Assembly (NCBI GenBank): GCA_049283795.1
Contig: JBAPWQ010000049.1
Location: 13,400 to 77,399 of the forward strand
Reading direction: 5' to 3'
Length of the DNA stretch: 64,000 bases
Source: Desulfobacterales bacterium
GTDB taxonomy: Bacteria; Desulfobacterota; Desulfobacteria; Desulfobacterales; SG8-13
Both the position numbers and the translations under genes were made by a program. Below, in pieces: positions 12,631-51,796 of this stretch. Numbering within the stretch: position 1 is the stretch's first letter; each line of letters begins with the position of its first letter. The notes below the pieces were generated by a model. The model did not search any database. It saw only the letters and a program-made list of their open reading frames with translations, and was not told where the DNA came from.

Positions 12631-12925
12631 AGCCTCTTGCCGGTGTCGTGGCATCTCGACGGGTCTCGATGGCCTTGAACGAGGCAGGTGACCGGCGTTG
12701 CGAGGTTCAGGGTTCAGCCCGGCCGCCGGCCGCGAAACGCCTACTTTATTGTTGTCCTTGGCGCCTCTGACCGGTTCGACGTTCCGGCTGCTGGAAGTCG
12801 ACCCGCATCGGGTCAACGCGCCATTCTGGGGGCCGTTGAGCCGTCGCGGCAGGTGTGGTATAGGCGATGCCGATCGACAGTATCCGGAGTCGGTCGGAGC
12901 GCATACCCCTTTTGGAGGACAAGCC

Positions 12926-14395
12926 GTGACGGTTGATGCTTTTACCTGCCGCTGTGTCAGCGATACCCTGGACGGGCTGCGTGATGGCCTGTCCCACTTC
13001 TCGGGCCCCAGCCGGGCCGCCGTGCTGTTCTCGATTGCCCCCGGTGATCCCCTGTTCATCTGCGATCCCCAGAACCTTCTCAAAGGCCATGAGCCCCGCT
13101 TCAGGGAGCTTTACCTGGACAACGAGCAGTGGCGACGCGAACTTCCTGCCGGCTGTGACAAGAACAGGTTCAGCTACATGGTCGCGGAAAAGAACCTTCA
13201 ACTGGCCGGCCTCATCTCCTGCGGCGGACGTTCCAGCGCGGTATTTTTTCAGATGTGGTTCACCGATCACCATCCGGATATGTGTTCCATCGGACCCACC
13301 GAGCGTTGGCTGGAACACGCCGCCTGGCGTTTCTCGCACGATATGGCCAATGACAGGGAACTGTACACGGGCATATCGGGCGGTTTTTTGCGTGAATTCG
13401 CCAGCCACGCCGTGCATGACTACCTCGTCGACCGGATGAATGTTCTCCTGGGGTGGGACAGCCAGTTGCGGATTTACCCCATTCTGGACGCTGTTCTGGG
13501 AATATCGCGGACGCGGGAAGAGCAAATGATGCCCAGGGGCGAACTGGTTTTCCTCGAACGGCCCCTGCTGGGCAGCATCGACTACCTGGCGCGGTTTCCT
13601 GAAATGGAGCAGCCTCTGCTGGACAACTTTAAGCATGTCCGCAAGCTGCTGCAGGCGGTGGAGGATTCCGATCGCCAACTGGTGTCGGATGGGAAGAACA
13701 TCGTCGGCATCAGCACCGCCGGCGGGATGCCGCCCTTTTTTATCACGGCGGACTTCAGGGGCAATTTCGGCTTCCTGAAACTCAACGGCGAGGAGGTGTG
13801 CAGTTTTTCCGACGGCAGCTTTAAATCCACCACCCGCAAGGCCAAGCTAGTCCAGGTGGAGGAGGCCCTGTTCGAAGCCCGGCTCGATCCGGCGGTCGGC
13901 AGTCACCTGTTCAAAATAACGGCGGCACTGGTTCATGCCGCCGAAGAATCGAAATCCGGCTGTACCCTGGTCATCGACCTGAACGATGAACCGGTTGTCA
14001 TCTCTGGTCAGAGGCTGGCCGAGCCGCTCGATCTCCAGCAATCACACCTGCTGGAACTGGCCATCGCCCTGTCCAAAGTGGACGGGGCGCTCCACATCGG
14101 GCGCGACCGGCGTCTGCACGGGTTTGCCTGCCTGCTCGACGGCCTGGCGATACCGGGCGAAGATCGGGCGCGCGGGGCGCGCTTCAATTCGGCCCTGCGG
14201 TTTACGGCCGTGCGGCCGAAAATCCTGGTCGTGGTCGTGTCGGTCGATCGGCCGTATGCCGTCATCCAGGAAGGGGTCGAAATCAGTGCCCAGTGTCAGT
14301 GGGTGCCCCTGACAAGTTGCCTTTTCCGCCCGCTGACGCTGGCGGCCTGGGTCAACGGAAAAAAATCGGGTGTTCTGCTTTCCAGCGCAGCCTGA
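12926..14395 (+). CDS. Protein with a C-terminal DisA_N/DAC (diadenylate cyclase)-fold domain and a ~340-aa N-terminal domain of unknown function
   Basis: GTG at 12926 with GGAGGA 6 nt upstream, giving 489 aa. The C-terminus GCTLVIDL...KVDGALHIGRDRRLHGFACLLDG...GARFNSALRF...VVVVSVDRPYAVIQEG aligns by eye to the CdaA/DisA DAC domain. Confidence 0.7.
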   Translation: MTVDAFTCRCVSDTLDGLRDGLSHFSGPSRAAVLFSIAPGDPLFICDPQNLLKGHEPRFRELYLDNEQWRRELPAGCDKNRFSYMVAEKNLQLAGLISCGGRSSAVFFQMWFTDHHPDMCSIGPTERWLEHAAWRFSHDMANDRELYTGISGGFLREFASHAVHDYLVDRMNVLLGWDSQLRIYPILDAVLGISRTREEQMMPRGELVFLERPLLGSIDYLARFPEMEQPLLDNFKHVRKLLQAVEDSDRQLVSDGKNIVGISTAGGMPPFFITADFRGNFGFLKLNGEEVCSFSDGSFKSTTRKAKLVQVEEALFEARLDPAVGSHLFKITAALVHAAEESKSGCTLVIDLNDEPVVISGQRLAEPLDLQQSHLLELAIALSKVDGALHIGRDRRLHGFACLLDGLAIPGEDRARGARFNSALRFTAVRPKILVVVVSVDRPYAVIQEGVEISAQCQWVPLTSCLFRPLTLAAWVNGKKSGVLLSSAA

Positions 14396-19408: not shown

Positions 19409-21739
19409 TCACACCAATCCGGTGAACTCGAACTCCAGCTTGGTCTGAAACTTTTCGACCCGCTTGAAGATTTCTTTCAGCATCTTCTGTTCGATGTTGG
19501 TCAGTTTTTTGGGATTGATGTAATTGTCGGGGGCGGTTTTTTCATCGACGACCGCCGTGACCTGCCGGACAAACCGCAACTGCATCAGGAAAGTGTAGGC
19601 TTTTTCAACCTCGTCGTGCTCCGGTACCGTAATGACCTTTTTCAACTGCAGGTGAACCAGGCGTTCCAGCGTGTTCGTTTCTTCGATTTTATGTTTGAGG
19701 GCATAAATACGGGCGAAATCGACGATGGGGGTCATGGCACTCTTGATATCCAGGGCGCTGCGGTGCTGGCCCTTGGATTCGACCACGAAGTTGCGAAAAA
19801 AACCGATGGGCGGTTTGAAGTGCAGGGCATTTTCAGTCAGGTGTCGAAAAAAACCGGACCAGCCCTCCAGGGATGCAAAAAGGTGTTTTCGCAGGGCCTC
19901 GATCAGTGACGCCTCTCCATAGCCGTGGCGAAAGTCGAAAAAGATGCTGGCCTGGAGCAAATCTTCCGGTTCGGCCGCATGAATCCAGGCCGAAAAATAG
20001 GCTTTCCAGGTCGAGAGCGACTGGCACCATTTGGGATTTTGAGCCATGACGCCACCGGTGCAGTATTCAAAACCGGCCTGGTCCAGCAGAAAGCAGGCCT
20101 TTTCCCCGAATTTCAAAAAATATTGCCTTACGTCCGGCTCCTCCTGTTTGTCGACGTCCTGGTACACGATGGCATTGTCCTGATCTGTTTTCAGGGTCTG
20201 CTCGTGCCGGCCTTCACTGCCCATGATCATGAAAACGAACGGAATCGGCGGCGGCCCCAACTCCTTTATGGTAAATGCCACGACCTTTTTGAGGATGGCG
20301 TCGGAGACGGCGGTAATGAACCGTGTCAGGTTCTGGGCTCGAGCGCCGCTGGTGATCAGGCTGCGGAGCAGTTGCGGCATCCGGCGGTTGCGCTCGATAA
20401 TCTGGGTTATGCTCTCCGCCTCGGTGATTTCCCGCAGCATAAACAATGGCGACTGCCCTTGAGCCGACAGGAGGTCACGGCTCGACAGAATACCCACCAC
20501 CTCATCGGCGGCGTCCATGACGGCCAGATGGCGGATGTCATCCTTCATCATCAGCATCAGGGCTTCAAAAATCAGCGCCTGGTCCGCAATCGTGCGGACC
20601 GGCGAGGACATGATGTCTTTCACCGGCTGCTGGATGTCCAGCCCCGGGGCGATTACCTTCAGGGCCAGGTCTTTTTCCGTTATGACACCCACGCACCGGC
20701 CGGAGGGTGCTTTGAGAAAGATCGAGCTGATTTTTTTCTGGTTCATCACTTGCGCGGCGTCTTGAATTGTCATGTCGACGCTGCCGAAGACCGGCTGGCG
20801 GGTGTAGATGCTGGCCACCGGTTGATTAAAAAACTGCAGGCCCTCCTGCTGGGGCTGCAGGGCCTTGGCGATGATGCTCGCATACGATTTTTCGAGCATG
20901 CGCCGGCCGAAAATGTCCGTGAAGTGCTCGGTGAAGGCTTCGAAGCGCTTGCAGATCTCCAGAAACGTTTGCTTGGGCAGCAGGTAGAAAAAGGACTTTT
21001 CGATCACCCGCATCGTGCGCACCGAAATGCCGTCGTTCAGCAGAATCGAAATGCCGCCGTAGATGTCGCCTGCGCCCAGCTGCTCGACCATCTTTTTTTT
21101 GTTTTGCTCCTCATAGTAGCGTTCCGCGGACCCCTTCTGAAGAATGTAGAGGTACCCGATGCGCGTGCGGCCCTGCACGAACAAAACGGTGTTCTTGGGA
21201 TAGTGGACCATCGTCAGTTCTGTTACGATGCTGTCGAGTTCCGTGGCCGGTAATACTGAAAAAGGCGGCAGGCGGGACAAAAAGTGCTTGGCCTGCCCGG
21301 ATTCGATGATCGAGGCCAGGGAGGTGTCGAAGATGTTTCGGCTGAAATTTTCCAGAAAATATTCGTAAAAGGCCTTGTAGCGCGTGCAGAGGTCCAGAAA
21401 ATTTTCCTCCGGGACCCTGTATCCGGTGCACTCCTCCTCGACGATGGCGGTCCGCAGGGAAATCCCGGCGTTGAGCAGGATCGTGATCCCGCCGAAAACT
21501 TCACCCTGTTTGATGAAGCCGGTCGGTTTTTGATCGTTTTTTTTCTCGTCGTAAAGCGCCAGGGCGCCTTTTCTCACGATGAAAATGCTGTCGACCTTCG
21601 TTTTTCCCTGCACGGCGTACGATGTGCCCTTGGCATGGCTTTCCTCGACGGCGGAGGCCGCAATTTTTTGGCGCTCTTCCCTGGGCAGGAAAGAAAAATG
21701 GGGCATGCCCGATATATATCGATAAATCTGCTGGTCCAT
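19409..21739 (-). CDS. Signal-transduction protein: 2x cyclic-nucleotide-binding, a CBS pair and a DUF294 putative nucleotidyltransferase
   Basis: Trimmed to the ATG at 21739 (GAGGAG RBS), giving 776 aa. Two cNMP-binding-like units, a CBS pair (ISSIFLKAPSGRCVGVITEKDL; RHLAVMDAADEVVGILSSRDLL) and MGSEGRHEQTLKTDQDNA, typical of DUF294. Confidence 0.85.
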   Translation of the reverse strand: MDQQIYRYISGMPHFSFLPREERQKIAASAVEESHAKGTSYAVQGKTKVDSIFIVRKGALALYDEKKNDQKPTGFIKQGEVFGGITILLNAGISLRTAIVEEECTGYRVPEENFLDLCTRYKAFYEYFLENFSRNIFDTSLASIIESGQAKHFLSRLPPFSVLPATELDSIVTELTMVHYPKNTVLFVQGRTRIGYLYILQKGSAERYYEEQNKKKMVEQLGAGDIYGGISILLNDGISVRTMRVIEKSFFYLLPKQTFLEICKRFEAFTEHFTDIFGRRMLEKSYASIIAKALQPQQEGLQFFNQPVASIYTRQPVFGSVDMTIQDAAQVMNQKKISSIFLKAPSGRCVGVITEKDLALKVIAPGLDIQQPVKDIMSSPVRTIADQALIFEALMLMMKDDIRHLAVMDAADEVVGILSSRDLLSAQGQSPLFMLREITEAESITQIIERNRRMPQLLRSLITSGARAQNLTRFITAVSDAILKKVVAFTIKELGPPPIPFVFMIMGSEGRHEQTLKTDQDNAIVYQDVDKQEEPDVRQYFLKFGEKACFLLDQAGFEYCTGGVMAQNPKWCQSLSTWKAYFSAWIHAAEPEDLLQASIFFDFRHGYGEASLIEALRKHLFASLEGWSGFFRHLTENALHFKPPIGFFRNFVVESKGQHRSALDIKSAMTPIVDFARIYALKHKIEETNTLERLVHLQLKKVITVPEHDEVEKAYTFLMQLRFVRQVTAVVDEKTAPDNYINPKKLTNIEQKMLKEIFKRVEKFQTKLEFEFTGLV

Positions 21740-21996
21740 CGAATCTCCTCGGGGTTGGGGGAAGGGGGAACTCATGCCGGGCCATTATAGGCAAAAATCC
21801 CCCCAACATTCAATGCGGAACCGCCGTGGTGCGCCACCGATCATCCGGGTGCCGGTGCATTAAATTCATGCAGCGGGGCGGTCACAGGTATTGCTAAAGT
21901 GTTCGAAAGTCGATATAAATGGTACGTGATGGCCGGCACGCGCCGTGTGACTTCAAAATTCAGATCGCCTGTAACCAAATGAGGAAAGTATTGATC

Positions 21997-22768: not shown

Positions 22769-23047
22769 TCAGTCGGTGACATCTTCTTCGTTTTCGTCAT
22801 ACGGGGCATAGTCATAAGAAGTAACGCTGAATATTTTCGCTCCAGTTGAATCGAGCGACACACTGCCGGTCGCCTCGATCTCTTCGTCTATCATGTTCAA
22901 CAGCTTTTTCCCCGTCCGGTTCATTTCGACAATATATTCATCCTCATCGGTCGAGATCTTGACACCGGTGTTGTCATCATCGTCGTCCAGCGGATCGACG
23001 AAACCGATGAGTGTGACCTCCGCCCTGGAATCTTTATGGTGTTTCAT
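22769..23047 (-). CDS. Small acidic hypothetical protein (92 aa)
   Basis: ATG at 23047 with an AGAGGA RBS. Asp/Glu-rich sequence. No family recognised. Confidence 0.4.
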   Translation of the reverse strand: MKHHKDSRAEVTLIGFVDPLDDDDDNTGVKISTDEDEYIVEMNRTGKKLLNMIDEEIEATGSVSLDSTGAKIFSVTSYDYAPYDENEEDVTD

Positions 23048-23559
23048 CTGCCGTAATCCTCTTGTTGATGAAGTTGATGATGGCGCCAAGCGCTGGGCGC
23101 CGGGTGCGCTGAAACACGATTTCAAAGAGCAAATCCCATGCCGTGCGCGTAACACCCGGTTATCTTCCCGGTTACATCACGCCGGCCGGCAGACGGGGGA
23201 ACTGACTGTTCCGGTCTGTGGGCCGGCCGGCCGCGGACCACGCTGCAGCTTCCGGAACCTGGCAATACAACCTGCTGAAAAAAAAGATAAAAATAAATTC
23301 AGCGCCCTGCCGTGTCCGGGGCGGAAATTTTGACGTCCGGTATCGAGCCCCGTCGCCACCCTACGCGAACACATAATTCCCCTGGAGGCCAAAAAAGGAA
23401 CCGTGAGTTCTTCACTGTCACCTTGCCGGCGGCGTGTCAACGGGTGCGCCAACGCGCAACCGGTTGAATGAGGCCGCCAAACCGTCTGAAATAAAGGGCT
23501 GGCGTCTTTGGCCGGCGCGTAGCCGGTGACGGCGATTTCTTTGTGGCATTATGAGTTTT

Positions 23560-23575
23560 TGGCACCTGTTTTGCT
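23560..23575 (+). promoter_or_regulatory. Sigma-54 (-24/-12) type promoter upstream of the KamA gene
   Basis: TGGCACctgttTTGCT matches TGGCAC-N5-TTGCW with exact GG-to-GC spacing, about 220 nt upstream of the ATG at 23798. Confidence 0.5.
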
Positions 23576-23797
23576 ATGCGATGGTCAAAAGCCGGACGGA
23601 TCGTATGGCGTTCAGGAGTCAGGTCGACTTCCCCGCGGTCCGGCGATTTTACCGTTACGGGTAAAAAACGAGAAAATGGCCCGCCGTCGATTTGCCGGGC
23701 GGTGCCGCTGGCGCCCCTTGGCCTGGGCGGTGCGGGGCGCCTGATGGTCATCACGACCAGGGTCGAGTTCGACCCCAACAGAAAAGGAGAACCGTTC

Positions 23798-25147
23798 ATG
23801 CATCCTAACCCGTCCATTTTTCAACCGACCGTTGCCAACGGCCCCCAGGACGCCTTGCAGGGGAGGGAAGACGAAGAGCCTCCGGGTAGACAGGCAGCGG
23901 CTTCCGAGCCGACTGCCAGCTGCGGTCTTCGGCGATCCTCTCGCTGCAATGACGCGGCCGTCGTCCTTAGATTCCCCCCCGAGCGTGTTGCCCGCACTTC
24001 CGTAACCACGCGCGCCTTCCGGCGCAAATTTTTCCCCGGCGTACCCGACAAATCCTGGAATGATTGGCAATGGCAGATCCGCAACCGGATCCGGCACTAC
24101 GGGCAGCTCCAGTCGATGCTGAATCTCTCGGATTTGGAAAAAGCCGCCGGCGACCACACCGGCCCCAAGCTGCCTATGGGCATAACGCCGTATTACATGA
24201 GCCTGCTCTCCGCCGATGATGCCGACCAACCTTTGCGGCGCACGGTCGTGCCGACGATTAACGAGTTCGTCAGTTCGGCGGGAGAAGCGGACGATCCGCT
24301 CGGAGAAGAGAACCAGAGCCCGGTGCCGGGCCTCGTTCACCGCTACCCCGACCGGGTCCTTCTGCTGGTGCATGATTTCTGTTCCACATACTGCCGTTAC
24401 TGCACACGGTCGCGGGTGGTGGGTCACGGCGCCATTCTGCCGAGCCGGTCGCGTCTCGAGCAGGCGATCGACTACATTCGTGCGACGCCCGCGGTGCGCG
24501 ACGTGCTGGTGTCCGGCGGCGATCCGTTGACCCTCAACGACGACCGGCTGGAGTGGATCCTGGCGCGCCTGCGGCGGATACCGCATGTGGAGGTCGTGCG
24601 GATCGGGACCAAGATCCCGGCCGTCCTGCCGCAGCGGGTCACCGGGCGCTTGGTGCGGATGCTGCGCAAGTACCATCCGCTCTGGATGAGCCTGCATTTC
24701 ACCCACCCCGACGAGTGCACGCCGGAGACCACGCGCGCCTGTGGCATGCTGGCCGATGCCGGCATACCGTTGGGCTCGCAGACGGTCCTGCTCAAAGGCG
24801 TAAATGATTCGGCGGCGACGATGACCGCGCTGTGTCACGGCCTGCTGCGGATGCGCGTGCGGCCGTACTACCTCTATCAGTGCGACCCGATAACCGGTTC
24901 GGGCCACTTCCGGACCTCGATCGCCCGGGGCCTGGAGATCATCCGGGGGATGAGGGGGTTCACCAGCGGCTACGCCGTGCCGACCTATGTCGTGGATGCG
25001 CCCGGCGGCGGCGGCAAGGTCCCGCTGATGCCCGATTACATGGCCGGCCGGGAGGGAGCCGATCTGCTGCTGCGCAACTACGAAAATCGGCTGTACCGCT
25101 ATCCCGATTGCCGGGCCGCGGATATCGACCCTGGCGCTTCAGTCTGA
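23798..25147 (+). CDS. kamA: KamA-family radical-SAM lysine 2,3-aminomutase
   Basis: Trimmed to the ATG at 23798 (AAAGGAGA RBS), giving 449 aa. Motifs CSTYCRYCTR (CxxxCxxC), YYLYQCD and VVDAPGGGGKVPL (PLP Lys). Both Asp residues tied to epsilon-amino binding in LAM appear conserved. Confidence 0.85.
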   Translation: MHPNPSIFQPTVANGPQDALQGREDEEPPGRQAAASEPTASCGLRRSSRCNDAAVVLRFPPERVARTSVTTRAFRRKFFPGVPDKSWNDWQWQIRNRIRHYGQLQSMLNLSDLEKAAGDHTGPKLPMGITPYYMSLLSADDADQPLRRTVVPTINEFVSSAGEADDPLGEENQSPVPGLVHRYPDRVLLLVHDFCSTYCRYCTRSRVVGHGAILPSRSRLEQAIDYIRATPAVRDVLVSGGDPLTLNDDRLEWILARLRRIPHVEVVRIGTKIPAVLPQRVTGRLVRMLRKYHPLWMSLHFTHPDECTPETTRACGMLADAGIPLGSQTVLLKGVNDSAATMTALCHGLLRMRVRPYYLYQCDPITGSGHFRTSIARGLEIIRGMRGFTSGYAVPTYVVDAPGGGGKVPLMPDYMAGREGADLLLRNYENRLYRYPDCRAADIDPGASV

Positions 25148-25192
25148 CGGCCGGAAACCATTCCATAGATCATATTCCTTTGCCCGCTGAAT

Positions 25193-25260
25193 CGGCCGGG
25201 TTTTAAGAACCGGAAACGGTTTTCGAAACCCGGCCGGGGTTTTCGCTTGCCCGGTTTTCG
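25193..25260 (+). promoter_or_regulatory. Long imperfect hairpin with a GAAA loop, plus three GGTTTTCG direct repeats between kamA and the ATP-grasp genes
   Basis: cggccgggtttt..aaccg-gaaa-cggtt..aaacccggccg (25193..25236) is followed by GGGTTTTCG. GGTTTTCG occurs at 25218, 25238 and 25253. Confidence 0.35.
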
Positions 25261-25312
25261 CCGGTGATGTAGAGGTGGCATTCGCAGCAGAACTTGTTAA
25301 AGGACTTACGCC

Positions 25313-26326
25313 ATGAAAATCGGCCTGACATACGACCTGCGTTCGGAATACCTGGCGGCCGGATTCGGAGAAGAGGAAACCGCTGAATTCGACCGTGACG
25401 ATACCGTGATGGCTATCGAGAATGCGCTGCTGGGCCTGGGACATGCCACCGATCGCATCGGCAATGTTCGCAGCCTGTTCGGGCGCCTGACCGCCGGCGA
25501 CCGCTGGGACCTCGTTTTCAATATCGCCGAGGGGCTCAAGGGCATCGGCCGCGAGGCCCAGGTGCCCTCGGCGCTGGATGTCTACGGCATTCCCTACACC
25601 TTTTCGGATCCCCTGGTCATGGCGCTGACCCTGCACAAGGCGGTGACCAAGCGGGTGGTGCGCGATGCCGGCGTCCCCACGCCGGATTTTGCAGTGGTCC
25701 GGCCGGGCGATGGCGCCGGACCGTTGCCCTTTCCTCCGCCGTACTTCGTCAAGCCGGTGGCGGAAGGCACCGGCAAAGGGATTACGCCGCAATCGATCGT
25801 GCGGCGGCCCGAAGATCTGTCCGCTGCCAGCGACTCTTTGATCGCCGCCTTCCACCAGCCCGTCCTGGTCGAGCGCTTTCTGCCGGGCCGGGAGTTCACG
25901 GTCGGCATCGTGGGAACCGGCGCCCGGGCTCGGGTGCTCGGCACCATCGAAGTGCACCTTCTGGCGGCGGCCGAACCCGAGGTCTACTCCTATGTCAACA
26001 AGGAACGCTGCGAGGAGCTGGTCGAATACCGGCTCGGCCGCCCGGATGACGATCTGGCGGTGAAGGAGGCCGAAGACGTTGCACTGCGGGCCTGGCGGGT
26101 GCTCGAATGCCGGGATGCCGGCCGGATCGATGTGCGCTGCGATGAAAACGGCCGGCCGAATTTCATGGAGGTCAATCCCCTGGCCGGCTTGCACCCCTTC
26201 CATTCGGACTTGCCGATCATCTGCAGCCACATCGGGATGCCTTATGAGGACCTGATCCGGGACATCGTGGCTTCCGCCTCCCGGCGGATCGGCCCCGCGG
26301 CCGACCTCAAAGGAGCCGTGACCTGA
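25313..26326 (+). CDS. ATP-grasp ligase, D-alanine--D-alanine ligase family (paralog 1)
   Basis: 337 aa. Ddl-like layout: KAVTKRVVRDAGVPTPDF, YFVKPVAEGTGKGI, VLVERFLPGREFTVGIVG and GRIDVRCDENGRPNFMEVNPLAG. Confidence 0.8.
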   Translation: MKIGLTYDLRSEYLAAGFGEEETAEFDRDDTVMAIENALLGLGHATDRIGNVRSLFGRLTAGDRWDLVFNIAEGLKGIGREAQVPSALDVYGIPYTFSDPLVMALTLHKAVTKRVVRDAGVPTPDFAVVRPGDGAGPLPFPPPYFVKPVAEGTGKGITPQSIVRRPEDLSAASDSLIAAFHQPVLVERFLPGREFTVGIVGTGARARVLGTIEVHLLAAAEPEVYSYVNKERCEELVEYRLGRPDDDLAVKEAEDVALRAWRVLECRDAGRIDVRCDENGRPNFMEVNPLAGLHPFHSDLPIICSHIGMPYEDLIRDIVASASRRIGPAADLKGAVT

Positions 26327-26327
26327 T

Positions 26328-27386
26328 ATGCGTGTGGCGGTCGTGCACAACGACGTGACCCGGGACAGCGCCCCCGATGCGATAGACGTGCTGGCCCAGG
26401 CGGCAGCCGTCGAAAAAGCGCTGGCCGCGCTCGGCCACGAGGCGCTGACCTTCCCCTGCTCCCTCGATCTGGCCGGCGCCAGGGATCGGCTCAACCAGAT
26501 GCGGCCGGAAATCGTCTTCAACCTGGTGGAGTCGCTCGATGAACACGGGTGCCTGGCGCACCTGTTTCCCGCGCTGCTGGAGGCGATGGCGCTGCACTAC
26601 ACCGGCTCGCCGGCGGTGACGCTGCAGCTGACCACCCACAAGATCATGGCCAAGGAGCTGTTGCTGGCCTCCGGCCTGCGCACGCCGGCCTGGAGGGGGC
26701 CGTTTCCGGCCGAGCCGCTGTCACTGCTGCCCGCCGCAGCCGTGCGCTCCGCAAACACCCCCGGCGATCGCTGGATCGTCAAATCCGTCTGGGAGCACGC
26801 CTCTTTCGGCATGGAAGAAGATGCGTTGGTGTCCGATCTCACCGAAAAGGAGATCGAGAGGGTTTTGCGCGACCGCGCCCCGCACCTCGGCGGGTCCTGT
26901 TTCGCGGAGGGCTATGTGGACGGCCGCGAGTTCAACCTGGCGGTGCTGGCCGGTGAGACCGGGCCCCGTGTCCTGCCGCCGGCCGAGATTGTCTTTGACG
27001 GCTATGACGACCACAAACCGCGGATTGTCGGCTACCGTGCCAAATGGGAGCCGGATTCCTTCGAATACCATCACACCCCGCGACGATTTGATTTTCCGTC
27101 CGCCGACGAAGGGCTGCTGGACCGCCTCAAGGTCGATGCCCTCGCCTGCTGGCGCATCTTCGGGCTGGGCGGCTACGCGCGCGTCGATTTTCGAATAGAT
27201 CCGCACGGCACCCCCTGGATCCTCGAAGTCAATGCCAACCCGTGCCTGTCGCCCGATGCCGGTTTCGCCGCCGCACTGGCCCAAGGCGGCGTGTCGTTTC
27301 CAGATGCCGTTCAAGGAATCCTGGAAGACGCGCATAGGTGCGGCCGACGGCGATTGGCAAAGGGCAACCGCGACCGAGGAGCTTGA
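26328..27386 (+). CDS. ATP-grasp ligase, D-alanine--D-alanine ligase family (paralog 2)
   Basis: 352 aa. The ATG is 1 nt after the stop of paralog 1 (AAAGGAG RBS inside it). Motifs HKIMAKELLLASGLRTPAW, WIVKSVWEHASFGM, EGYVDGREFNLAVLAG and YARVDFRIDPHGTPWILEVNANPCLS. Confidence 0.8.
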   Translation: MRVAVVHNDVTRDSAPDAIDVLAQAAAVEKALAALGHEALTFPCSLDLAGARDRLNQMRPEIVFNLVESLDEHGCLAHLFPALLEAMALHYTGSPAVTLQLTTHKIMAKELLLASGLRTPAWRGPFPAEPLSLLPAAAVRSANTPGDRWIVKSVWEHASFGMEEDALVSDLTEKEIERVLRDRAPHLGGSCFAEGYVDGREFNLAVLAGETGPRVLPPAEIVFDGYDDHKPRIVGYRAKWEPDSFEYHHTPRRFDFPSADEGLLDRLKVDALACWRIFGLGGYARVDFRIDPHGTPWILEVNANPCLSPDAGFAAALAQGGVSFPDAVQGILEDAHRCGRRRLAKGNRDRGA

Positions 27387-27391
27387 CCACA

Positions 27392-29644
27392 ATGCTGCGC
27401 ATCCGCCGTATTTTCGATGACGTTCTGCCGGTCAACAAGGAGACCCTGGAACAGGTCAAGGCCATCCTGCGCGACCGCTTCAGCCAGGTCCCGGAAGAAG
27501 AAATCGACCAAATCGGCGCCAAGCTGCGCAACCCGTTCAAACAGCGGTTCCGCCCCATCCTGTTCGTGGCCAAGACCCTCCGCAGCCGTGTCAAGGGCTT
27601 CGCCATGCTGCTGCACGAGCCCGAAATCGGCTTCTGTTTTCTGGACTGGATCGCAACGGCCAGCGGCAGAACCGGCGGCGGATTGGGCGGCGCCCTGTAT
27701 GACCGGGTGCGCAGGGAATCGGTCGCCCTGGGTGCCGGCGGACTGTTCTTCGAGTGCCTGCCGGACGATGCCGAAGACTGTCCCGATGAAGCCCTGCTGA
27801 AGGAAAACCGGGCGCGCCTGCGATTTTACGAGCGCTACGGTGCCCGGCCGATCGTCCACACCGGCTACGAGCTGCCCGTCAATCCGGGGGACAGCTGCAT
27901 GCCCCATCTGGTCTACGATGCCCTGGATGCCGTCACCCCGCTGCGCCGCGCCTTTGTGCGCAAAGTGGTGCGGGCCATCCTGGAAAGAAAATACAGCGGG
28001 TACTGCCCAGCCGAGTACGTCGAGAAGGTGGTGGCCTCCTTTCGGGAAGACCCGGTGGCGCTGCGCGAGTTCCGGTATGTCAAACCGCAGGCCGTGAAGA
28101 CGGCGGTCGATGACCGCTCCATCGAGCAGATAGCCCTGATCGTCAATGACCGTCACCATATCCATCACGTGCACGAGCGCGGATACGTGGAGTCGCCCGT
28201 CAGGGTGCGCAGCATCCTGGCGGAACTCGACAAGAGCGGCCTGTTTGCCCGGCTCAAACCGCGGGCTTTTCCGGACAAGACCATCCACGCCGTTCACGAT
28301 GCCGATTTCGTCAGCTATCTGCGGCACGCATCCGAAGACGTGCCCGAGGGCAAATCCCTCTATCCTTACGTTTTTCCGGTGCGCAACAAGACCCGCCCCC
28401 CGAAAGAGCCCTCGGTCCTGTCGGGCTACTACTGCATCGACACCTTCACCCCCATCAACCGCAACGCCTATCCGGCGGCGCGGCGCGGGGTGGACTGCGC
28501 GCTGACCGCCGCCCGTGAAATCCTGGACGGCCGGCGCATGGCTTACGCCCTGGTGCGGCCGCCGGGCCATCACGCCGAACGCCGGGTCTTTGGCGGTTTC
28601 TGTTATTTCAACAACAACGCCATTGCGGCCCAGTACCTGTGCGCCTACGGAAAAGTCGCCATCCTCGACATCGACTATCACCACGGCAACGGCCAACAGG
28701 ACATTTTCTACCGCCGCTCCGATGTGCTGACCGTTTCGATCCACGGCAGCCCCCGGTTCGCCTACCCCTATTTCACCGGCTTCGAGGACGAACGCGGCGA
28801 CGGTGAAGGCGAGGGGTTCAACCTGAACTTTCCCCTGCCCGAGCACCTGGACGGTGAAAAATACCGCCGGGCGCTGGTCAAGGCGCTGCAGAGGATAGAA
28901 GAATACGGCCCCCAATTTCTGGTGGTGGCCCTGGGCCTGGACACCGCCAAGGGCGATCCGACCGGCTCCTGGTCGCTGATGGCCAAAGACTTCGAGGAAA
29001 ACGGGCGCCTGATCGGCGCGATGGCGGTGCCGACGGTAGTCGTTCAGGAAGGCGGCTACCGCACCCGGACCCTTGGCCAGAACGCCCGCAACTTCTTCAA
29101 GGGCCTGGCCGAGGCGCACATGAAGGCGGTCGGCCGGCGCCAGGAGCCCAAGGCCCGGCTGCACGGCATCGTCTTTCGGTATGAGCTGCAGCCGCAGGAC
29201 CCCGAAAGGATCTCGCGGTTAACCGACATCACCGGTTTTTTCACCGCCGCCGAAGTGCAGGTGGCGGTCGAGCTTGTCAACGAACGCCTGGCCAAGGGGG
29301 AGGCCAGCGGATACCACTATGTCATGGCCGAGCACTACGGGCGCCTGGCCGGCTACGCCTGCTACGGGCCGATCGCCTGCACGGTGTCGAGCTACGATGT
29401 CTACTGGATAGCGGTCCATCCGGATTATCAGGGCAAGGGGCTCGGACGCAGGATTTTAAGGGAGGTCGAACGGCTGATACGGCAGGGCGGCGGGACGCGC
29501 ATTTACGTCGAAACCTCCCAGCGAGTGCAGTACGCCAGTACGCGGGCGTTTTACGAAAGCGGCGGCTATCGCCTGGAGAGCGTGCTAACGGATTTCTATG
29601 CACCGGGTGACGGCAAGGTGGTTTACTGCAAATCTTTGATTTAG
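27392..29644 (+). CDS. Tri-domain protein: N-terminal GNAT-like, HDAC/acetylpolyamine-amidohydrolase-family deacetylase, and C-terminal GNAT acetyltransferase
   Basis: ATG at 27392 (GAGGAG RBS), 5 nt after the upstream stop, giving 750 aa. Deacetylase motifs RPPGHHA, DIDYHHGNGQQDIF, GLDTAKGDP and QEGGY. C-terminal GNAT WIAVHPDYQGKGLGRRIL. N-terminal GNAT-like WIATASGRTGGGLGGALY. Confidence 0.85.
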   Translation: MLRIRRIFDDVLPVNKETLEQVKAILRDRFSQVPEEEIDQIGAKLRNPFKQRFRPILFVAKTLRSRVKGFAMLLHEPEIGFCFLDWIATASGRTGGGLGGALYDRVRRESVALGAGGLFFECLPDDAEDCPDEALLKENRARLRFYERYGARPIVHTGYELPVNPGDSCMPHLVYDALDAVTPLRRAFVRKVVRAILERKYSGYCPAEYVEKVVASFREDPVALREFRYVKPQAVKTAVDDRSIEQIALIVNDRHHIHHVHERGYVESPVRVRSILAELDKSGLFARLKPRAFPDKTIHAVHDADFVSYLRHASEDVPEGKSLYPYVFPVRNKTRPPKEPSVLSGYYCIDTFTPINRNAYPAARRGVDCALTAAREILDGRRMAYALVRPPGHHAERRVFGGFCYFNNNAIAAQYLCAYGKVAILDIDYHHGNGQQDIFYRRSDVLTVSIHGSPRFAYPYFTGFEDERGDGEGEGFNLNFPLPEHLDGEKYRRALVKALQRIEEYGPQFLVVALGLDTAKGDPTGSWSLMAKDFEENGRLIGAMAVPTVVVQEGGYRTRTLGQNARNFFKGLAEAHMKAVGRRQEPKARLHGIVFRYELQPQDPERISRLTDITGFFTAAEVQVAVELVNERLAKGEASGYHYVMAEHYGRLAGYACYGPIACTVSSYDVYWIAVHPDYQGKGLGRRILREVERLIRQGGGTRIYVETSQRVQYASTRAFYESGGYRLESVLTDFYAPGDGKVVYCKSLI

Positions 29645-29715
29645 TTCGAAACAGAAGCCTTTAACAAAAAATGCCACGTCTGCGGGGTATCGGGCGGCGG
29701 TCGGTCATGCAAACC

Positions 29716-29747
29716 GAAGAAGGCCGACTGGCGGGCCGGCCTTCTTC
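29716..29747. terminator. Perfect 11-12 bp GC-rich hairpin between convergent genes (no clear T-tract)
   Basis: gaagaaggccg-N10-cggccttcttc lies between the stop of the tri-domain gene (29644) and the stop of the 29789..30091(-) gene. Confidence 0.4.
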
Positions 29748-29788
29748 GAGCGCTCATCTCATTCAGCTTTTAAAAAAATCATCGCCAA

Positions 29789-30091
29789 CTATTCCTTTTT
29801 GGCGGCCGAGGTGACATGCAGGACTTTTTTGCCGCCTTCCTCGGTGACGGTGCCCTTGATAGTGACCATTTTGCCCTTCATGCCGGAAAGGTCCTGCCCT
29901 TCAAGTAGATACTGCTTGCCTTCGGACATGATGACAAACCCGCCGGGGGAATTCTGAACCGTACCGAAAATTTCGACCTGTTTTGCTTCCTTGCCACTGG
30001 CCATCGACTGGTTGGCCTGGAACGCCGTGCCGGCAAACAGCAATAGCGCCATCATCACCGCCGTGCAAACCGCTACCTTGAAAAATTTCAT
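29789..30091 (-). CDS. Small secreted protein (100 aa)
   Basis: Trimmed to the ATG at 30091 (AGGAGG RBS). Signal peptide MKFFKVAVCTAVMMALLLFAGTAFQA. No family recognised. Confidence 0.5.
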   Translation of the reverse strand: MKFFKVAVCTAVMMALLLFAGTAFQANQSMASGKEAKQVEIFGTVQNSPGGFVIMSEGKQYLLEGQDLSGMKGKMVTIKGTVTEEGGKKVLHVTSAAKKE

Positions 30092-30574
30092 CGTCGCCTC
30101 CTGATCTGTTCGTTTGATTTGATTTCTCCGGAAGTCACAATGAACTCGATTGGGTCGGTTTTCTCCGGACGGCAAGCGCAAAAAACACTCCTTCCCAACA
30201 AACCTCACGGCCTTCTTCCGAAGTTCCTATGTGAGTCATAAGCTTAGCAAGACCGGTGCCAACAGGATAACCACCTGAGATGAAATGATATACTGATTTC
30301 GTTGACCTGCTCGCCGAACGCTCCATTCTAATATTTGAGCCCTGAATCTGCGGGCGATCGGGCCTGCGCCCCGCTAACAGACTGACCTGGCAGGATAAAA
30401 TCAACAGGGCCGTGACCAGAACTCCCGGGACTCAATTAGGGGGTATCGGAATTCGAAATTCCTTTTTCTCCGCCGGGTGCCAGCCGCGGGCACCGGCAAC
30501 AGGGTGTCATCGGTCGTGACCGAAGCCGTCAGGGCCTCAACGTTACACCGCACATCGACCCGCGCTCGCTCTTC

Positions 30575-39777: not shown

Positions 39778-41655
39778 TCACTCCAGTTCGTCGAAGCGGC
39801 ATTTCAGATAGACGCCCTCGCCGTCATATGATGTTTTGACTTTGTAGGGCAGGGTCTTAAACAGCCGGATCATCGCCTGGTTGTGCGGGGCGGTGTAGGC
39901 GATCAGGCCCGCGACCCCATTTTCGCGCGCGGCATCCGCCAGTTTGCGCATGATGCGGCGGCTGAGCCCTTTGTTCTGGTATTTTGCGTTCACCGAAAAC
40001 GCCACCTCGGCCATGTTGCTGTCCGCCAGCAGCATGCTCTCGCCCACGGCCACCACCCGGCCGAAGCCGAACTCCCCCACCACCCCGAGGAGCGTCAGGT
40101 CTTTGACGTAGTCGATCTGCGATTTGCTCTCTATATCCTTGCGGTCGAAACTGGTTTTTTCGTGGAAGAAGCGCGAAAAAATGTCGTCCTTGTCGAGATT
40201 GTAATAATGTTCCTGGATGCGGCGCTCGTCCACCGGTTTGGCGGGTCGGATGGTGACTTCTTCACCGTCGATGTCGAGGGTTTCCTCGAGGCGGACGGGG
40301 TAGATCCCCCGCACGGCCTCTCCCAGGGACCTTTCTGGTCCGATCATGCCGGCATGCTTGGCCCGCTCGAAGAGTTCCTTCCTGAAGTCCGGGTGGGCAA
40401 TTCCGATCATGGCGATCACCCGTTCCTGGTAGCTCTTGCCGAACAGGTTGACCACGCCGTATTCCGTGACCACATAGTGGACATCGCCGCGCGGGACCAC
40501 GACCGCCGTTTCGCCGAGCGTCGGAACGATGTTGCTGGACTTCCCATCCTCCGAGGTGGCAAACAGCATCAGGATCGATTTGCCGCCCGGTGCCCGCCGC
40601 GCCCCGCGGACGAAATCGGGGATGCCGGAGACGCCGGCGTAAAACGTCTGGGCCGAGGCCTCGGCCGCCACCTGGCCGGTGAGGTCGATGGCCTTGGCGA
40701 CATTGATCGACACCATCCGGTTGTGGCGCGAGATGACGAACGGATCGTTGACATAGTCCGATGGACGAAAATCGACCGCCGGATTGTCATCGATGAAATC
40801 GTAGAGGCCGCGGGAGCCGATCGCGGCCGACGCGACCAGTTTGCCGTCGTTGAACCCCTTCTTACGGTTGGTGATGACGCCTTTGGCGTAAAGGTGCATG
40901 ATGTCGTCGATCAGGTACTGGGAATGGATCCCCAGGTCGTTTTTATGGGACAGGGCTTGCAGGGTCGCCTGGGAGGCGGCATCCAGACCGATCTGCAGGG
41001 TGGAGCCGTCTTCGATGAGCCGCGCGATATGCTGTCCGATGCGGGCGGCCGCCGGCGATGACGGCCGGGGACCGACGGCCAGCAGATCCTCATCGTGCTC
41101 CACGATGACATCCACGTCATTGACATGGATGAAGCTCTGACCCAGCACGCGCGGCATTTTCGAATTGACCTGCGCGATGACCAGGTCCGCCGAAACGGCC
41201 GCCGCCAGGGTGACATCCACCGAAATGCCCAGGCTCATCCAGCCGAAATCATCCGGGGGAGACACCTGGACCAGGGCGACGTTGATCGGCAGTTTGTGAG
41301 CTTTGAACATCCCGGGGACATCCGACATGTTCATGGGGGTTATAAAGCGCTTGTTGCGCGTGATGACCTCGTCCTCGTGGGCCGAGCCGAGATAGATGGT
41401 GCGAACACTAAGGCTGTGATCCTGGGTCCGGTTGGCGATGGCCGTGAGCGACGAGGTTTCCATGCTCATCAGGCGCACGATCTCCAGGCCCGACGAACGG
41501 GGCGCCAGTTCGGAAAGCGTGCGGACCAACGCCTGCGGCTCCCCGCAGGCCGAGCCGATGAAAACGCGCCGTCCCGGCCGGATCAGGCCGATGGCATCGG
41601 TGAGGCTTTTCTTTTTTTCAATGTAACCATCGGCCCAGTATTGAGAACCTGCCAA
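39778..41655 (-). CDS. Bifunctional acetyl-CoA hydrolase/transferase-family protein fused to a C-terminal GNAT acetyltransferase
   Basis: 625 aa with a TTG start (GAGGAGG RBS). The N-terminal ~480 aa has the acetyl-CoA hydrolase/transferase layout. The C-terminal GNAT motif is YQNKGLSRRIMRKLADAAR. Confidence 0.8.
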   Translation of the reverse strand: MAGSQYWADGYIEKKKSLTDAIGLIRPGRRVFIGSACGEPQALVRTLSELAPRSSGLEIVRLMSMETSSLTAIANRTQDHSLSVRTIYLGSAHEDEVITRNKRFITPMNMSDVPGMFKAHKLPINVALVQVSPPDDFGWMSLGISVDVTLAAAVSADLVIAQVNSKMPRVLGQSFIHVNDVDVIVEHDEDLLAVGPRPSSPAAARIGQHIARLIEDGSTLQIGLDAASQATLQALSHKNDLGIHSQYLIDDIMHLYAKGVITNRKKGFNDGKLVASAAIGSRGLYDFIDDNPAVDFRPSDYVNDPFVISRHNRMVSINVAKAIDLTGQVAAEASAQTFYAGVSGIPDFVRGARRAPGGKSILMLFATSEDGKSSNIVPTLGETAVVVPRGDVHYVVTEYGVVNLFGKSYQERVIAMIGIAHPDFRKELFERAKHAGMIGPERSLGEAVRGIYPVRLEETLDIDGEEVTIRPAKPVDERRIQEHYYNLDKDDIFSRFFHEKTSFDRKDIESKSQIDYVKDLTLLGVVGEFGFGRVVAVGESMLLADSNMAEVAFSVNAKYQNKGLSRRIMRKLADAARENGVAGLIAYTAPHNQAMIRLFKTLPYKVKTSYDGEGVYLKCRFDELE

Positions 41656-42004: not shown

Positions 42005-42020
42005 TGGCATATCTCTTGCT
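42005..42020 (+). promoter_or_regulatory. Sigma-54 (-24/-12) type promoter upstream of glgP
   Basis: TGGCATatctcTTGCT has exact consensus spacing and lies about 95 nt upstream of the ATG at 42113. Confidence 0.5.
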
Positions 42021-50218: not shown

Positions 50219-51796
50219 ATGATGTTTTTGAAATTTTTTACCTGGCTCCGGCACCGTCAAATTTTCCTTCTTTTTATTCTTCTGGCCGTTTTTGGCGGCT
50301 GTGCCCAGCTCGATCCCTCCGAGGCCGCGGCCAATGCTCCCTTTACTTTCGAAACGGCGGTCGATGAAGCCCACCAACTTTCTCTCGCCCCCTATAAAGA
50401 CCCCACGGGTGAGGTGCCCGAACGGCTCTTGAAGATCGACTATGACGACTGGCGTGACATTCGCTTCAAGCCGCCCAAGGCCCTGTGGCGCGATGAAAAT
50501 CTGCCCTTCACGCTGCAGTTCTTTCACCCGGGCCTTTACTTCGATCGGACGGTGAAGATCAACGTGATCGAACCGTCGGGCACCATCCATCCGGTGCGTT
50601 TTTCGAAAGACCTCTTCGACTACAAGAAAAAAAGGGTTGCGGACCTCGTGCCCAATGATCTGGGCTTTGCGGGCTTTCGCATCCACTATCCCATCAACAA
50701 GCCGGAATATCAGGACGAGGTGGCCGTGTTTTTGGGCGCCAGCTATTTCCGGGCGGTCGGTCGCAACATGAATTACGGTCTTTCGGCCCGCGGGTTGGCG
50801 GTCGACACCTATCTGCCGGGCGGCGAGGAATTTCCGTATTTCCGCAAGTTCTGGATCCAGAAACCGGCGCCCGACGCGACGACGCTCACCCTCTATGCCA
50901 TTCTGGACGGTCCCAGTATTGCCGGTGCCTACCAGTTTGTCATCCATCCCGGAAAAGAGACGGTGATGGACGTCAGAAGCACTCTTTTCCCAAGGCGAAA
51001 AATCGAGCAGCTCGGCATCGCGCCGATGACGAGCATGTTCTTTTACGGTGAAAACACGTATCCGCGGCCGGTAGACGATTTTCGGCCCGAAATTCACGAC
51101 ACCGACGGCTTGATGATGGAGACCGGGTCTGGTGAATGGATCTGGCGACCGCTGGTCAACCCGCCCCGGCTTCTGGTGACCGCCTTTCAGATGACCGAGC
51201 CCAAAGGCTTCGGCCTCCTTCAGCGGGACCAGGCGTATGATCACTACCAGGACATCGAGAGCAACTACGACAATCGGCCCAGTCTCTGGGTGGCGCCGGT
51301 TGGCAACTGGGGCGAGGGGCGGGTGCAGCTGATCATGATCCCGACCGACGAAGAGATCCACGACAATATCGTGGCCTTCTGGGTTCCCGCGACGCCGCCC
51401 GCGGTCGGACGGCCCGTCAGCTTCGACTACCGCATGAGCTGGCACTATTTCGCCGACGGGCATCGCCCGCCGGGCGCCTATGTGGATGCTTCCCGCACGG
51501 CCGAAGGCAAGGCGCCCGGGCTGCGGAAGTTCGTGGTCGATTTCACCGGCGGCGACCTGGCCGCACTTGCCGCCGATCAGCCGCTCGAAGCGATCGTCCA
51601 TGTCAGTCCCAATGCCACCCTGGTCGAACAACAGCTCGCCAAAGTGCCGCAAACCGGTCACTGGCGCCTGGTCTTTCAGATCGACCCTGAAAAGAAGTCG
51701 GACCCCGGACGAGCGGATCCGATCGAAATCCGGGCCTTTTTGAAAAAAGGGGCCGATGTCCTCAGTGAAACCTGGAGCTATGTCTATCTACCCTGA
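50219..51796 (+). CDS. opgG: Periplasmic glucan biosynthesis protein, OpgG/OpgD (MdoG) family
   Basis: 525 aa with a signal peptide (lipobox-like FGGC). The length and motifs FRIHYPIN, FLGASYFRAVG, FFYGEN and RPSLWV resemble MdoG/OpgG. The ATG may be 50219 or 50222. Confidence 0.8.
   Translation: MMFLKFFTWLRHRQIFLLFILLAVFGGCAQLDPSEAAANAPFTFETAVDEAHQLSLAPYKDPTGEVPERLLKIDYDDWRDIRFKPPKALWRDENLPFTLQFFHPGLYFDRTVKINVIEPSGTIHPVRFSKDLFDYKKKRVADLVPNDLGFAGFRIHYPINKPEYQDEVAVFLGASYFRAVGRNMNYGLSARGLAVDTYLPGGEEFPYFRKFWIQKPAPDATTLTLYAILDGPSIAGAYQFVIHPGKETVMDVRSTLFPRRKIEQLGIAPMTSMFFYGENTYPRPVDDFRPEIHDTDGLMMETGSGEWIWRPLVNPPRLLVTAFQMTEPKGFGLLQRDQAYDHYQDIESNYDNRPSLWVAPVGNWGEGRVQLIMIPTDEEIHDNIVAFWVPATPPAVGRPVSFDYRMSWHYFADGHRPPGAYVDASRTAEGKAPGLRKFVVDFTGGDLAALAADQPLEAIVHVSPNATLVEQQLAKVPQTGHWRLVFQIDPEKKSDPGRADPIEIRAFLKKGADVLSETWSYVYLP

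Follow-up and report, generated by a model that had tools for sequence, protein, structure and literature searches.

The kamA locus and its conservation

We analyzed a gene cluster on contig JBAPWQ010000049.1 of a Desulfobacterales bacterium. The window, that is, the whole stretch of DNA analyzed, comprises 64,000 nt, and all coordinates are given in window numbering. Four co-directional genes lie on its plus strand. The first one, kamA (23798-25147), codes for a KamA-family lysine 2,3-aminomutase of the radical-SAM/pyridoxal phosphate (PLP) type with 449 amino acids and a variable N-terminal extension. It is followed by two genes for Ddl-like ATP-grasp amide ligases, which we call AG1 (25313-26326, 337 amino acids) and AG2 (26328-27386, 352 amino acids), and by the gene for a three-domain protein of 750 amino acids, here called FUS (27392-29644), in which a deacetylase domain of the acetylpolyamine amidohydrolase (APAH) type stands between two GNAT domains. 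An earlier note on this DNA had described four co-directional genes behind a -24/-12 element of the form TGGCAC-N5-TTGCT, stop-start gaps of 1 and 5 nt with ribosome-binding sites inside the upstream genes, and a hairpin in the gap 25148-25312. We found all of these features.

The TGA of AG1 is separated by a single base from the ATG of AG2, and a Shine-Dalgarno sequence (AAGGAG) lies within AG1. In the same manner, five nucleotides separate the TGA of AG2 from the ATG of FUS, with GAGGAG within AG2. This arrangement suggests that AG1, AG2 and FUS are co-translated. The reading frame of kamA already opens at the ATG at 23576. Since this codon overlaps the -12 box, we place the start of the gene at the ATG at 23798, which has AAAGGAG in front of it and coincides in the alignment with the start codon of two related loci (L003 and L025).

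The gene set is widely conserved. A search of 185,579 species, each represented by a single genome, with an alignment of FUS gave at least 585 relatives, of which 80 loci were taken for the analysis of the neighbourhood and searched by tblastn with KamA, AG1 and AG2. Fourteen loci were cut by a contig end, leaving 66 that could be assessed. The order kamA-AG1-AG2-FUS is found in 57 of them; two lack kamA alone and seven have FUS without the other three genes. The complete loci belong to at least four phyla (32 Desulfobacterota, 16 Alphaproteobacteria, 7 Planctomycetota-like, one metagenome-assembled genome (MAG) of a gammaproteobacterium and one unclassified), and the alphaproteobacterial ones include Methyloceanibacter, Sneathiella and Rhodospirillales. 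The cluster is also present in Desulfococcus multivorans. FUS proteins of the relatives are 50-75% identical. Conservation of the neighbourhood, which the earlier note had proposed to check, is therefore borne out.

The cluster also occurs in variants. The locus of Desulfovibrio mangrovi contains, in this order, a gene for a sigma-54 activator, kamA, AG1, AG2, a gene for a GNAT corresponding to the C-terminal domain of FUS, and a separate gene for the N-terminal GNAT with the deacetylase. A contig similar to D. alaskensis G20 has the genes for the activator, KamA, both ligases and the GNAT but lacks one for the deacetylase at this locus, and a Woeseia MAG shows a further variant. In Planctomycetota, Desulfovibrio and Woeseia the C-terminal GNAT has a gene of its own, which across lineages is placed either before or after the gene for the N-terminal GNAT and the deacetylase. 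As the gene order is kept across phyla and the domains have been split or fused, these comparisons are strong evidence that the four proteins function together. From the published annotation of Dde_3047 we infer the locus tags of strain G20 to be Dde_3040 for the activator, 3041 for KamA, 3042 and 3043 for the ligases and 3044 for the GNAT (PDB 2r7h).

All-against-all clustering of the open reading frames (ORFs) of 83 loci revealed no conserved gene beyond the four, be it for an exporter, a regulator, an amidotransferase or another protein. The exception is an optional gene of the CxxCxxCC/YkgJ family (PF03692) for a cysteine-rich, putative Fe-S or zinc protein of about 173 amino acids. Fourteen loci (7446-7967 in L006, 7396-7929 in L074 and 12 more) have it inserted between kamA and AG1; the window does not have it.

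The element TGGCAC-CTGTT-TTGCT at 23560-23575 on the plus strand matches the sigma-54 consensus exactly, as does just one other site on the two strands of the 64 kb. With up to one mismatch there are four matches in the window against 1.06 expected, a count that one of 100 shuffles reached. In 11 related Desulfobacterota loci the element upstream of kamA can be aligned, with flanking DNA that has diverged beyond alignment. Of 59 loci, 15 match a relaxed form of the pattern 5′ of kamA, and three of these are Planctomycetota-like. The element thus has what is expected of a sigma-54 promoter, namely GG-N10-GC in the correct orientation, a position 5′ of a gene and retention in orthologous loci. 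In D. mangrovi and in the G20-like contig, a gene for an NtrC-type sigma-54 activator lies directly 5′ of kamA (L083 3857-5293, L085 3874-5310), and the best -24/-12 site sits between the activator gene and kamA. No Sigma54_activat domain was present among the scanned ORFs of the window. We conclude that sigma-54 control of the kamA operon is real but lineage-specific. Lysine 2,3-aminomutase has been found enriched in the sigma-54 regulons of Bacilli (PMC12316311); the sigma-54 regulome of D. vulgaris contains no lysine, ligase or acetyltransferase genes (PMC4641369).

A second promoter for the ligase genes was looked for and not found. None of the 59 gaps between kamA and AG1 contains a sigma-54 element, and a consensus scan of 22800-30400, which covers the gap in the window, gave no sigma-70-like promoter.

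The kamA leader (23576-23797, plus strand), which extends about 210 nt past the predicted start site, varies in length and sequence among relatives. A riboswitch in these roughly 220 nt was rejected: neither the leader nor the gene cluster gave an Rfam match, and the leader is not kept even in close relatives. About 130 nt of it (~23650-23760) are gone in the close relative L003, the KamA of which is 96% identical, and are partly shared with L025. This is an indel of the 5′ untranslated region with no evident function.

Between kamA and AG1 we find a hairpin of 44 nt with 12 + 7 bp (25193-25236), followed by GGGGUUUUCGC (25193-25247 in total, plus strand). The hairpin and the GGGGUUUUCG next to it lie in a gap of 165 nt with a minimum free energy of -60.9 kcal/mol (z = -2.4). 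The structure proposed earlier is thus real by folding, and it is kept in relatives: L003, L025 and L005 share it with compensatory changes. Many other loci of Desulfobacterota and Planctomycetota also have a GC-rich hairpin 3′ of kamA, unrelated to this one and in several cases followed by a U-run; in Alphaproteobacteria kamA extends up to AG1. A simple terminator scan of the window made no call at the gap. Because a terminator-like hairpin is conserved 3′ of kamA, partial termination is plausible, and the hairpin is a candidate attenuator or partial terminator which could set the ratio of kamA to ligase expression.

At the other end of the operon a GC-rich inverted repeat (GAAGAAGGCCG / CGGCCTTCTTC, 29716-29747) can be read between FUS and a convergent downstream gene. 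It possibly marks the end of the operon; it has no clear T-run, and a function as terminator is putative.

Enzymes encoded by the four genes

KamA has the Pfam domains Radical_SAM and LAM_C and aligns over 362 residues with the lysine 2,3-aminomutase of Clostridium subterminale (PDB 2a5h, E = 2e-136). In the numbering of 2a5h it keeps the CxxxCxxC motif (CSTYCRYC), R134, D293 (QCD), D330 and K337 (VVDAPGGGGK). Thus the cluster motif, the PLP lysine and both aspartates, the latter assigned before by eye, all align with the solved enzyme. All 57 cluster-linked KamA orthologues have the QCD motif, and 53 of them also have V[IV]D-x-PGGGGK. In glutamate 2,3-aminomutase both aspartates are replaced. 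As they are kept here, lysine is the expected substrate, and KamA probably turns L-lysine into beta-lysine.

With the NCBIfam models, KamA scores 344.8 bits for the subfamily TIGR00238 (cut-off 199.2). Its best model is AblA (TIGR03820), for which it reaches 481.6 bits and stays under the equivalog cut-off of 525.4. For EpmB (TIGR03821) it scores 247.4 bits against a cut-off of 369.3. Eight cluster-linked KamAs from five other lineages behave alike: AblA is the best model at 444-485 bits, always under the cut-off, the glutamate- and arginine-mutase models come second, and EpmB gives 234-262 bits. AblA is therefore the top model in all nine proteins. As far as clades can be assigned by ranking scores of hidden Markov models, the cluster-linked KamAs form a coherent lysine-type subfamily near the AblA equivalog yet outside of it. 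The earlier note had reasoned that membership of KamA in the EpmB group, with epmA elsewhere, would speak against its reading. KamA lies outside that group, and no epmA-type ORF, which would code for a LysRS paralogue, is found among the scanned ORFs of the window.

The variable N-terminal extension of KamA contains an acidic motif, [ED]3-4-P-P-[GDS], in 31 of the 57 orthologues (L001-L045, L075 and L079; Desulfobacterota and some Planctomycetota). The copy in the window is REDEEPPGR at residues ~25-33 (23870-23896, plus strand). The motif is not present in the alphaproteobacterial orthologues and may be a docking motif.

Both ligases match PF07478, AG1 with E = 4e-24 and AG2 with E = 1.5e-13, and are 25% identical to each other. 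The nearest solved structures to either are Ddl enzymes. However, neither reaches the cut-off of the best Ddl model (NF002378, 243 bits), as AG1 scores 143.2 and AG2 99 bits. For a closer inspection of the active site, 62 orthologues of AG1 and 68 of AG2 were aligned to E. coli DdlB, the numbering of which is used here; residues 72-304 of the DdlB sequence used were confirmed against the alignment of 1iov, and the E15 column is the least certain. The residues for ATP and Mg binding, K97, K144, E180, E187, K215, R255, D257, E270 and N272, do not vary within either family. In contrast, E15, S150, Y216, S281 and L282 of DdlB correspond to A, T, E, S and D in the AG1 family and to D, A, W, A and G in the AG2 family, and these residues are nearly invariant within each family. 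As the ATP/Mg residues are invariant and the D-Ala-binding positions replaced, AG1 and AG2 appear to be competent ligases with two distinct, fixed specificities other than D-alanine. They are predicted not to be D-Ala-D-Ala ligases and to act on other substrates. Genuine Ddl specificity residues, which the earlier note had named as an argument against its own reading, are thus replaced in both ligases. The two proteins share with the Ddl and Van ligases the fold and all catalytic ATP/Mg residues, but differ in the scores, in the E15/S150/Y216 triad and the S281-L282 pair, and in that their genes adjoin kamA and not mur or fts genes. One might speculate that a cationic amino substrate, beta-lysine for instance, would fit AG1, since this ligase carries acidic residues in place of Y216 (E) and L282 (D). 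AG2 also shows a weak TTL match (E = 0.003), and in one representative protein an ATP-grasp domain is fused to an N-terminal GNAT of the FUS type.

The description of FUS as a GNAT-deacetylase-GNAT protein agrees with Pfam, with the motifs and with AlphaFold and Foldseek. The full-length AlphaFold model is moderate (pLDDT 69.6). The N-terminal domain (residues 1-245, 27392-28126) has no Pfam match when the full-length protein is scanned and a weak GNAT match when scanned alone (E = 0.004). Its own model has GNAT topology (pLDDT 78.5), and Foldseek retrieves exclusively GNATs, led by 2r7h, GCN5, SpeG and PaiA, with TM-scores of ~0.7-0.78 when normalised to the target. It is thus a divergent GNAT, with motif A in GRTGGGLGGALY and motif B in NRARLRFYERYGARP. 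The CoA-binding motif A (Q/R-x-x-G-x-G/A) is found in both GNATs of FUS, as RTGGGLG in the N-terminal and as QGKGLG in the C-terminal domain. The family of the N-terminal GNAT is small: of 1.84 billion representatives, 132 match at E <= 1e-30. The domain stands at the N terminus of representatives of ~575-600 or 740-760 amino acids, and the two of these that were scanned with Pfam carry a deacetylase domain after it. The idea that this domain is a streptothricin-type beta-lysine acetyltransferase was dropped: the profile matches are weak (E = 0.005-0.28) and Foldseek finds generic GNATs, so that we treat it as a lead and not as evidence.

The central domain (residues 266-571, 28187-29104) has the HDAC fold and matches PF00850 with E = 9e-78. 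Its closest solved structures are APAHs, namely 6phr (E = 2e-75), 9gkz, 3q9b and 3men, and the top Foldseek matches are again APAHs with 36-41% identity, whereas protein deacetylases are 22-27% identical. The H393/H394 dyad, the zinc ligands D426, H428/H430-431 and D517, and Y556 (EGGY) are invariant in the FUS alignment. The domain is predicted to be a complete zinc deacetylase of the APAH type.

The C-terminal GNAT (residues 592-746, 29165-29629) matches the Pfam families Acetyltransf_1, _7 and _10 (E = 1e-16 to 7e-17). It is orthologous to Dde_3044 of D. alaskensis G20 (E = 1e-42), a structural-genomics orphan solved as PDB 2r7h. The NCBIfam matches of FUS are rimI and generic GNAT models, all under their cut-offs; no AblB-type model is among them.

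FUS is the most conserved of the four proteins across the loci and AG2 the least, a surprising order if FUS is, as presumed, an accessory protein for switching the acetyl group. Compared with D. multivorans, the identities are 73% for FUS, 67% for AG1, 65% for KamA and 54% for AG2.

A proposed pathway and its alternatives

We suggest that the four genes form a self-contained cytoplasmic operon which makes an amide or a small (pseudo)peptide from beta-lysine, with an N-acetyl group that is reversible, and that in this lineage the operon is controlled by sigma-54. We give this reading a probability of roughly 55%. What the sequence itself shows are the enzyme classes, the intact catalytic residues, the lysine-type pocket of KamA, the lost D-Ala pocket of the ligases, the synteny and the conservation of the promoter.

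The pathway could proceed in the following steps. An enhancer-binding protein would activate the -24/-12 promoter at 23560-23575, for which there is comparative support. KamA would then convert L-lysine into beta-lysine, as its lysine-binding and catalytic residues are kept. AG1 and AG2 would each form one amide bond via an acyl-phosphate intermediate, with substrates other than D-alanine, as could be expected from their intact ATP-grasp residues and their replaced D-Ala-binding positions. The GNAT domains would acetylate an amino group of beta-lysine, of an intermediate or of the product, and the APAH-type domain would remove the acetyl group again. Two roles of this group can be envisaged. 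It could shield the epsilon-amine during activation of the carboxylate, a logic known from the biosynthesis of arginine and of phosphinothricin tripeptide. Alternatively, it could be a charge or storage switch like the acetylation and deacetylation of polyamines, which would fit because of the resemblances to APAH and to SpeG/PaiA. The earlier note had already proposed stepwise ligation and an acetyl group acting as protecting group or storage switch; an APAH-type deacetylase and a SpeG/PaiA-like GNAT fold would agree with these ideas.

Neither an exporter nor a signal peptide is conserved with the four genes. An intracellular product is therefore likelier than a secreted antibiotic, and we suggest that the product would stay in the cell as a compatible solute or a polyamine-like cation. 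A role as osmolyte is plausible by analogy with N-epsilon-acetyl-beta-lysine and N-acetylglutaminylglutamine amide. In its most specific form, our proposal is a metabolite of a class not described so far, a beta-lysine-based di- or tri-(pseudo)peptide made with neither ribosome nor nonribosomal peptide synthetase (NRPS) by two dedicated Ddl-derived ligases, the charge of which is toggled by the acetyltransferase/deacetylase protein, and which would be in wide use among marine and sediment anaerobes, among planctomycetes and in part of the proteobacteria, either as a compatible solute or in place of polyamines. This version is tentative, and we would give it slightly less than even odds.

Several known systems share parts of this logic. 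In the NAGGN pathway, the bifunctional Ngg enzyme, a GNAT joined to an ATP-grasp, makes together with AsnO the compatible solute N-acetylglutaminylglutamine amide. Acetylation and peptide-bond formation by an ATP-grasp enzyme are thus common to both. Here, however, the ATP-grasps are Ddl-like with no Ngg-type match, there is no amidotransferase, and a beta-amino acid made by a radical-SAM enzyme and a deacetylase come in addition. The pair of APAH and SpeG/PaiA acetylates and deacetylates cationic amines, and the resemblance extends to the proteins: the central domain of FUS is 36-41% identical to the APAHs of Marinobacter, Pseudomonas, Mycoplana and Burkholderia, and the model of the N-terminal GNAT superposes on SpeG and PaiA. 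FUS differs in that it fuses both activities, with two GNATs, in 750 amino acids and is encoded together with a beta-lysine-forming enzyme and two ligases. In mycothiol biosynthesis the deacetylase MshB, the ATP-dependent ligase MshC and the tandem-GNAT acetyltransferase MshD act. The succession of deacetylation, ATP-dependent ligation of an amino acid and acetylation, and the double GNAT, are alike by analogy only. None of the enzyme families is related, with an LmbE-type deacetylase and a Cys-tRNA-synthetase-like ligase in mycothiol synthesis compared with HDAC-type and ATP-grasp enzymes here, and neither sugar nor inositol is involved in the present case.

Among the alternatives, a modification of proteins or peptides has to be considered first. 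The ATP-grasps would ligate beta-lysine or another amino acid onto a carboxylate or a lysine of a protein, as in RimK, TTL or the beta-lysylation of EF-P, and the GNAT and HDAC domains would write and erase acetyl-lysine there. Beta-lysine does modify the protein EF-P, the HDAC and GNAT folds include lysine deacetylases and acetyltransferases of proteins, with GCN5 and RimI among the GNAT matches, and the weak TTL match of AG2 points in the same direction. However, no gene for a target or a precursor peptide is conserved in the cluster, the deacetylase is with ~40% identity much closer to the APAHs, which act on small molecules, than to protein deacetylases (22-27%), KamA scores well under the EpmB cut-off, and the Ddl type, to which the ligases belong, is known to act on small molecules. 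We thus consider this explanation unlikely.

Slightly less probable still is a secreted specialised metabolite containing beta-lysine, be it an antibiotic, a signal or a metallophore, as a ribosome- and NRPS-independent counterpart of the beta-lysine peptides of the streptothricin type; acetylation would then provide self-protection and deacetylation activation. Such protection followed by deprotection is known from phosphinothricin tripeptide biosynthesis, and the weak best PDB matches of the N-terminal GNAT profile include streptothricin/nourseothricin acetyltransferases (3pp9, E = 0.011; 5c82, E = 0.28). These matches are, however, non-significant, with just the generic GNAT motif in common. 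Furthermore, no gene for export, resistance or tailoring is conserved nearby, and conservation across phyla with FUS proteins 50-75% identical is untypical of secondary-metabolite clusters.

The locus might also be a plain osmolyte route like that of AblA and AblB of methanogens and some bacteria, with the APAH domain degrading the osmolyte and the two Ddl-like genes being unrelated bystanders from cell-wall synthesis. Both would share a KamA-family mutase with the lysine-binding aspartates, for which AblA is the top model here, acetylation by a GNAT and a cytoplasmic small-molecule product. In addition, an APAH-type enzyme would plausibly deacetylate N-epsilon-acetyl-beta-lysine, which resembles N-acetylcadaverine. 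But bystanders would hardly be kept between kamA and FUS in 57 of the 66 assessable loci and at least four phyla, the G20-like locus retains the ligases though its deacetylase gene is absent, and the ligases have lost the D-Ala-binding residues. Moreover, KamA is under the AblA cut-off in nine of nine cases, no AblB-type acetyltransferase was detected among the NCBIfam matches of FUS, and the operon adds and conserves two ATP-grasp ligases and an APAH-type deacetylase. A mere AblAB-like route is therefore improbable in our view. Finally, lysine catabolism, in which KamA would act as the first enzyme as in clostridial lysine fermentation, is very improbable despite the frequent control of amino-acid catabolism by sigma-54, since kamDE, kdd, kce and kal are absent from both the window neighbourhood and the conserved set and ATP-consuming ligases are biosynthetic and not catabolic. 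A role in anti-phage defence was rejected, as none of the four proteins gave a PADLOC match.

We note, however, that several observations weigh against the proposal of a beta-lysine-derived amide or (pseudo)peptide. Every enzymatic step, as well as the substrates, the order of the steps, the product and its physiological role, is deduced from sequence; this holds for the substrate and the stereochemistry of KamA too, which scores under the AblA equivalog cut-off. An acetyltransferase and a deacetylase on one polypeptide would undo each other's work in a futile cycle if both acted on the same intermediate. The module is separable, since the G20-like locus lacks the gene for the N-terminal GNAT and deacetylase and FUS occurs alone in 7 of 66 loci. 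The hairpin conserved 3′ of kamA may keep the ligase genes from being expressed strictly together with kamA, and the regulation by sigma-54 is lineage-specific because the element is found in 15 of 59 loci. Lastly, the osmolyte idea is drawn from analogy and from the impression that many of the host taxa are marine.

A full-text search of the literature found no description of the kamA-AG1-AG2-FUS set, although a prior in-silico mention is possible. A survey of bacterial deacylases mentions neither ATP-grasp ligases nor an aminomutase or a deacylase-fused acetyltransferase domain (PMC11532494), and a paper which names a neighbouring gene of strain G20 concerns a phosphatase (PMC8836040). This agrees with the earlier note, to which no characterised system with the gene set was known. 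The overall reading of the earlier note is supported as well: of the four observations that it had listed as arguments against itself, we looked for three (a neighbourhood that is not conserved, ligases with Ddl specificity and a KamA of the EpmB group) and found none. What would be new is the combination of the genes and the specificities, while the enzyme families and the kind of pathway, a small molecule made from a beta-amino acid, are familiar.

If the proposal is true, hundreds of species from at least four phyla, including ecologically dominant sulfate reducers of marine sediments, share an undescribed metabolite. Beta-lysine would have a fourth fate besides acetylation to an osmolyte, modification of EF-P and fermentation, and the fold of the D-Ala-D-Ala ligases would comprise two new specificities. 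A function would also be assigned to the structural-genomics orphan 2r7h (Dde_3044) and to the conserved GNAT-deacetylase-GNAT protein. The system is experimentally tractable as D. alaskensis G20 carries the core genes.

Neighbouring genes and further sigma-54-type sites

Downstream of the operon, a small gene on the minus strand (29789-30090) is convergent with FUS. It codes for ~100 amino acids, apparently a secreted protein, the N terminus of which resembles a signal peptide and which matches DUF5818 weakly. The second exact sigma-54-type element of the window, TGGCACCGGTCTTGCT (30246-30261, minus strand), lies 5′ of this gene, so that two sigma-54 promoters flank the downstream end of the operon.

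Elsewhere in the window we noted a diadenylate cyclase with DACND/DACNH sensor domains (12698-14395, plus strand), a DUF294 nucleotidyltransferase with cNMP-binding and CBS domains (19409-21775, minus strand), an acetyl-CoA hydrolase/transferase fused to a GNAT (39778-41655, minus strand) and an ORF of 808 amino acids with no Pfam match (45922-48348, plus strand). A sigma-54-like site with one mismatch, TGGCATATCTCTTGCT (42005-42020, plus strand), is located ~95 nt 5′ of a gene of the DUF3417/glycogen-phosphorylase family (42113-44662, plus strand). Some 20 kb from the operon, an MdoG/OpgG gene for periplasmic glucan (50219-51796, plus strand) is followed by the gene for a GH94-domain protein of 1823 amino acids resembling cyclic-glucan synthases/phosphorylases (51930-57401, plus strand); these two are possibly genes for osmoregulated glucans.

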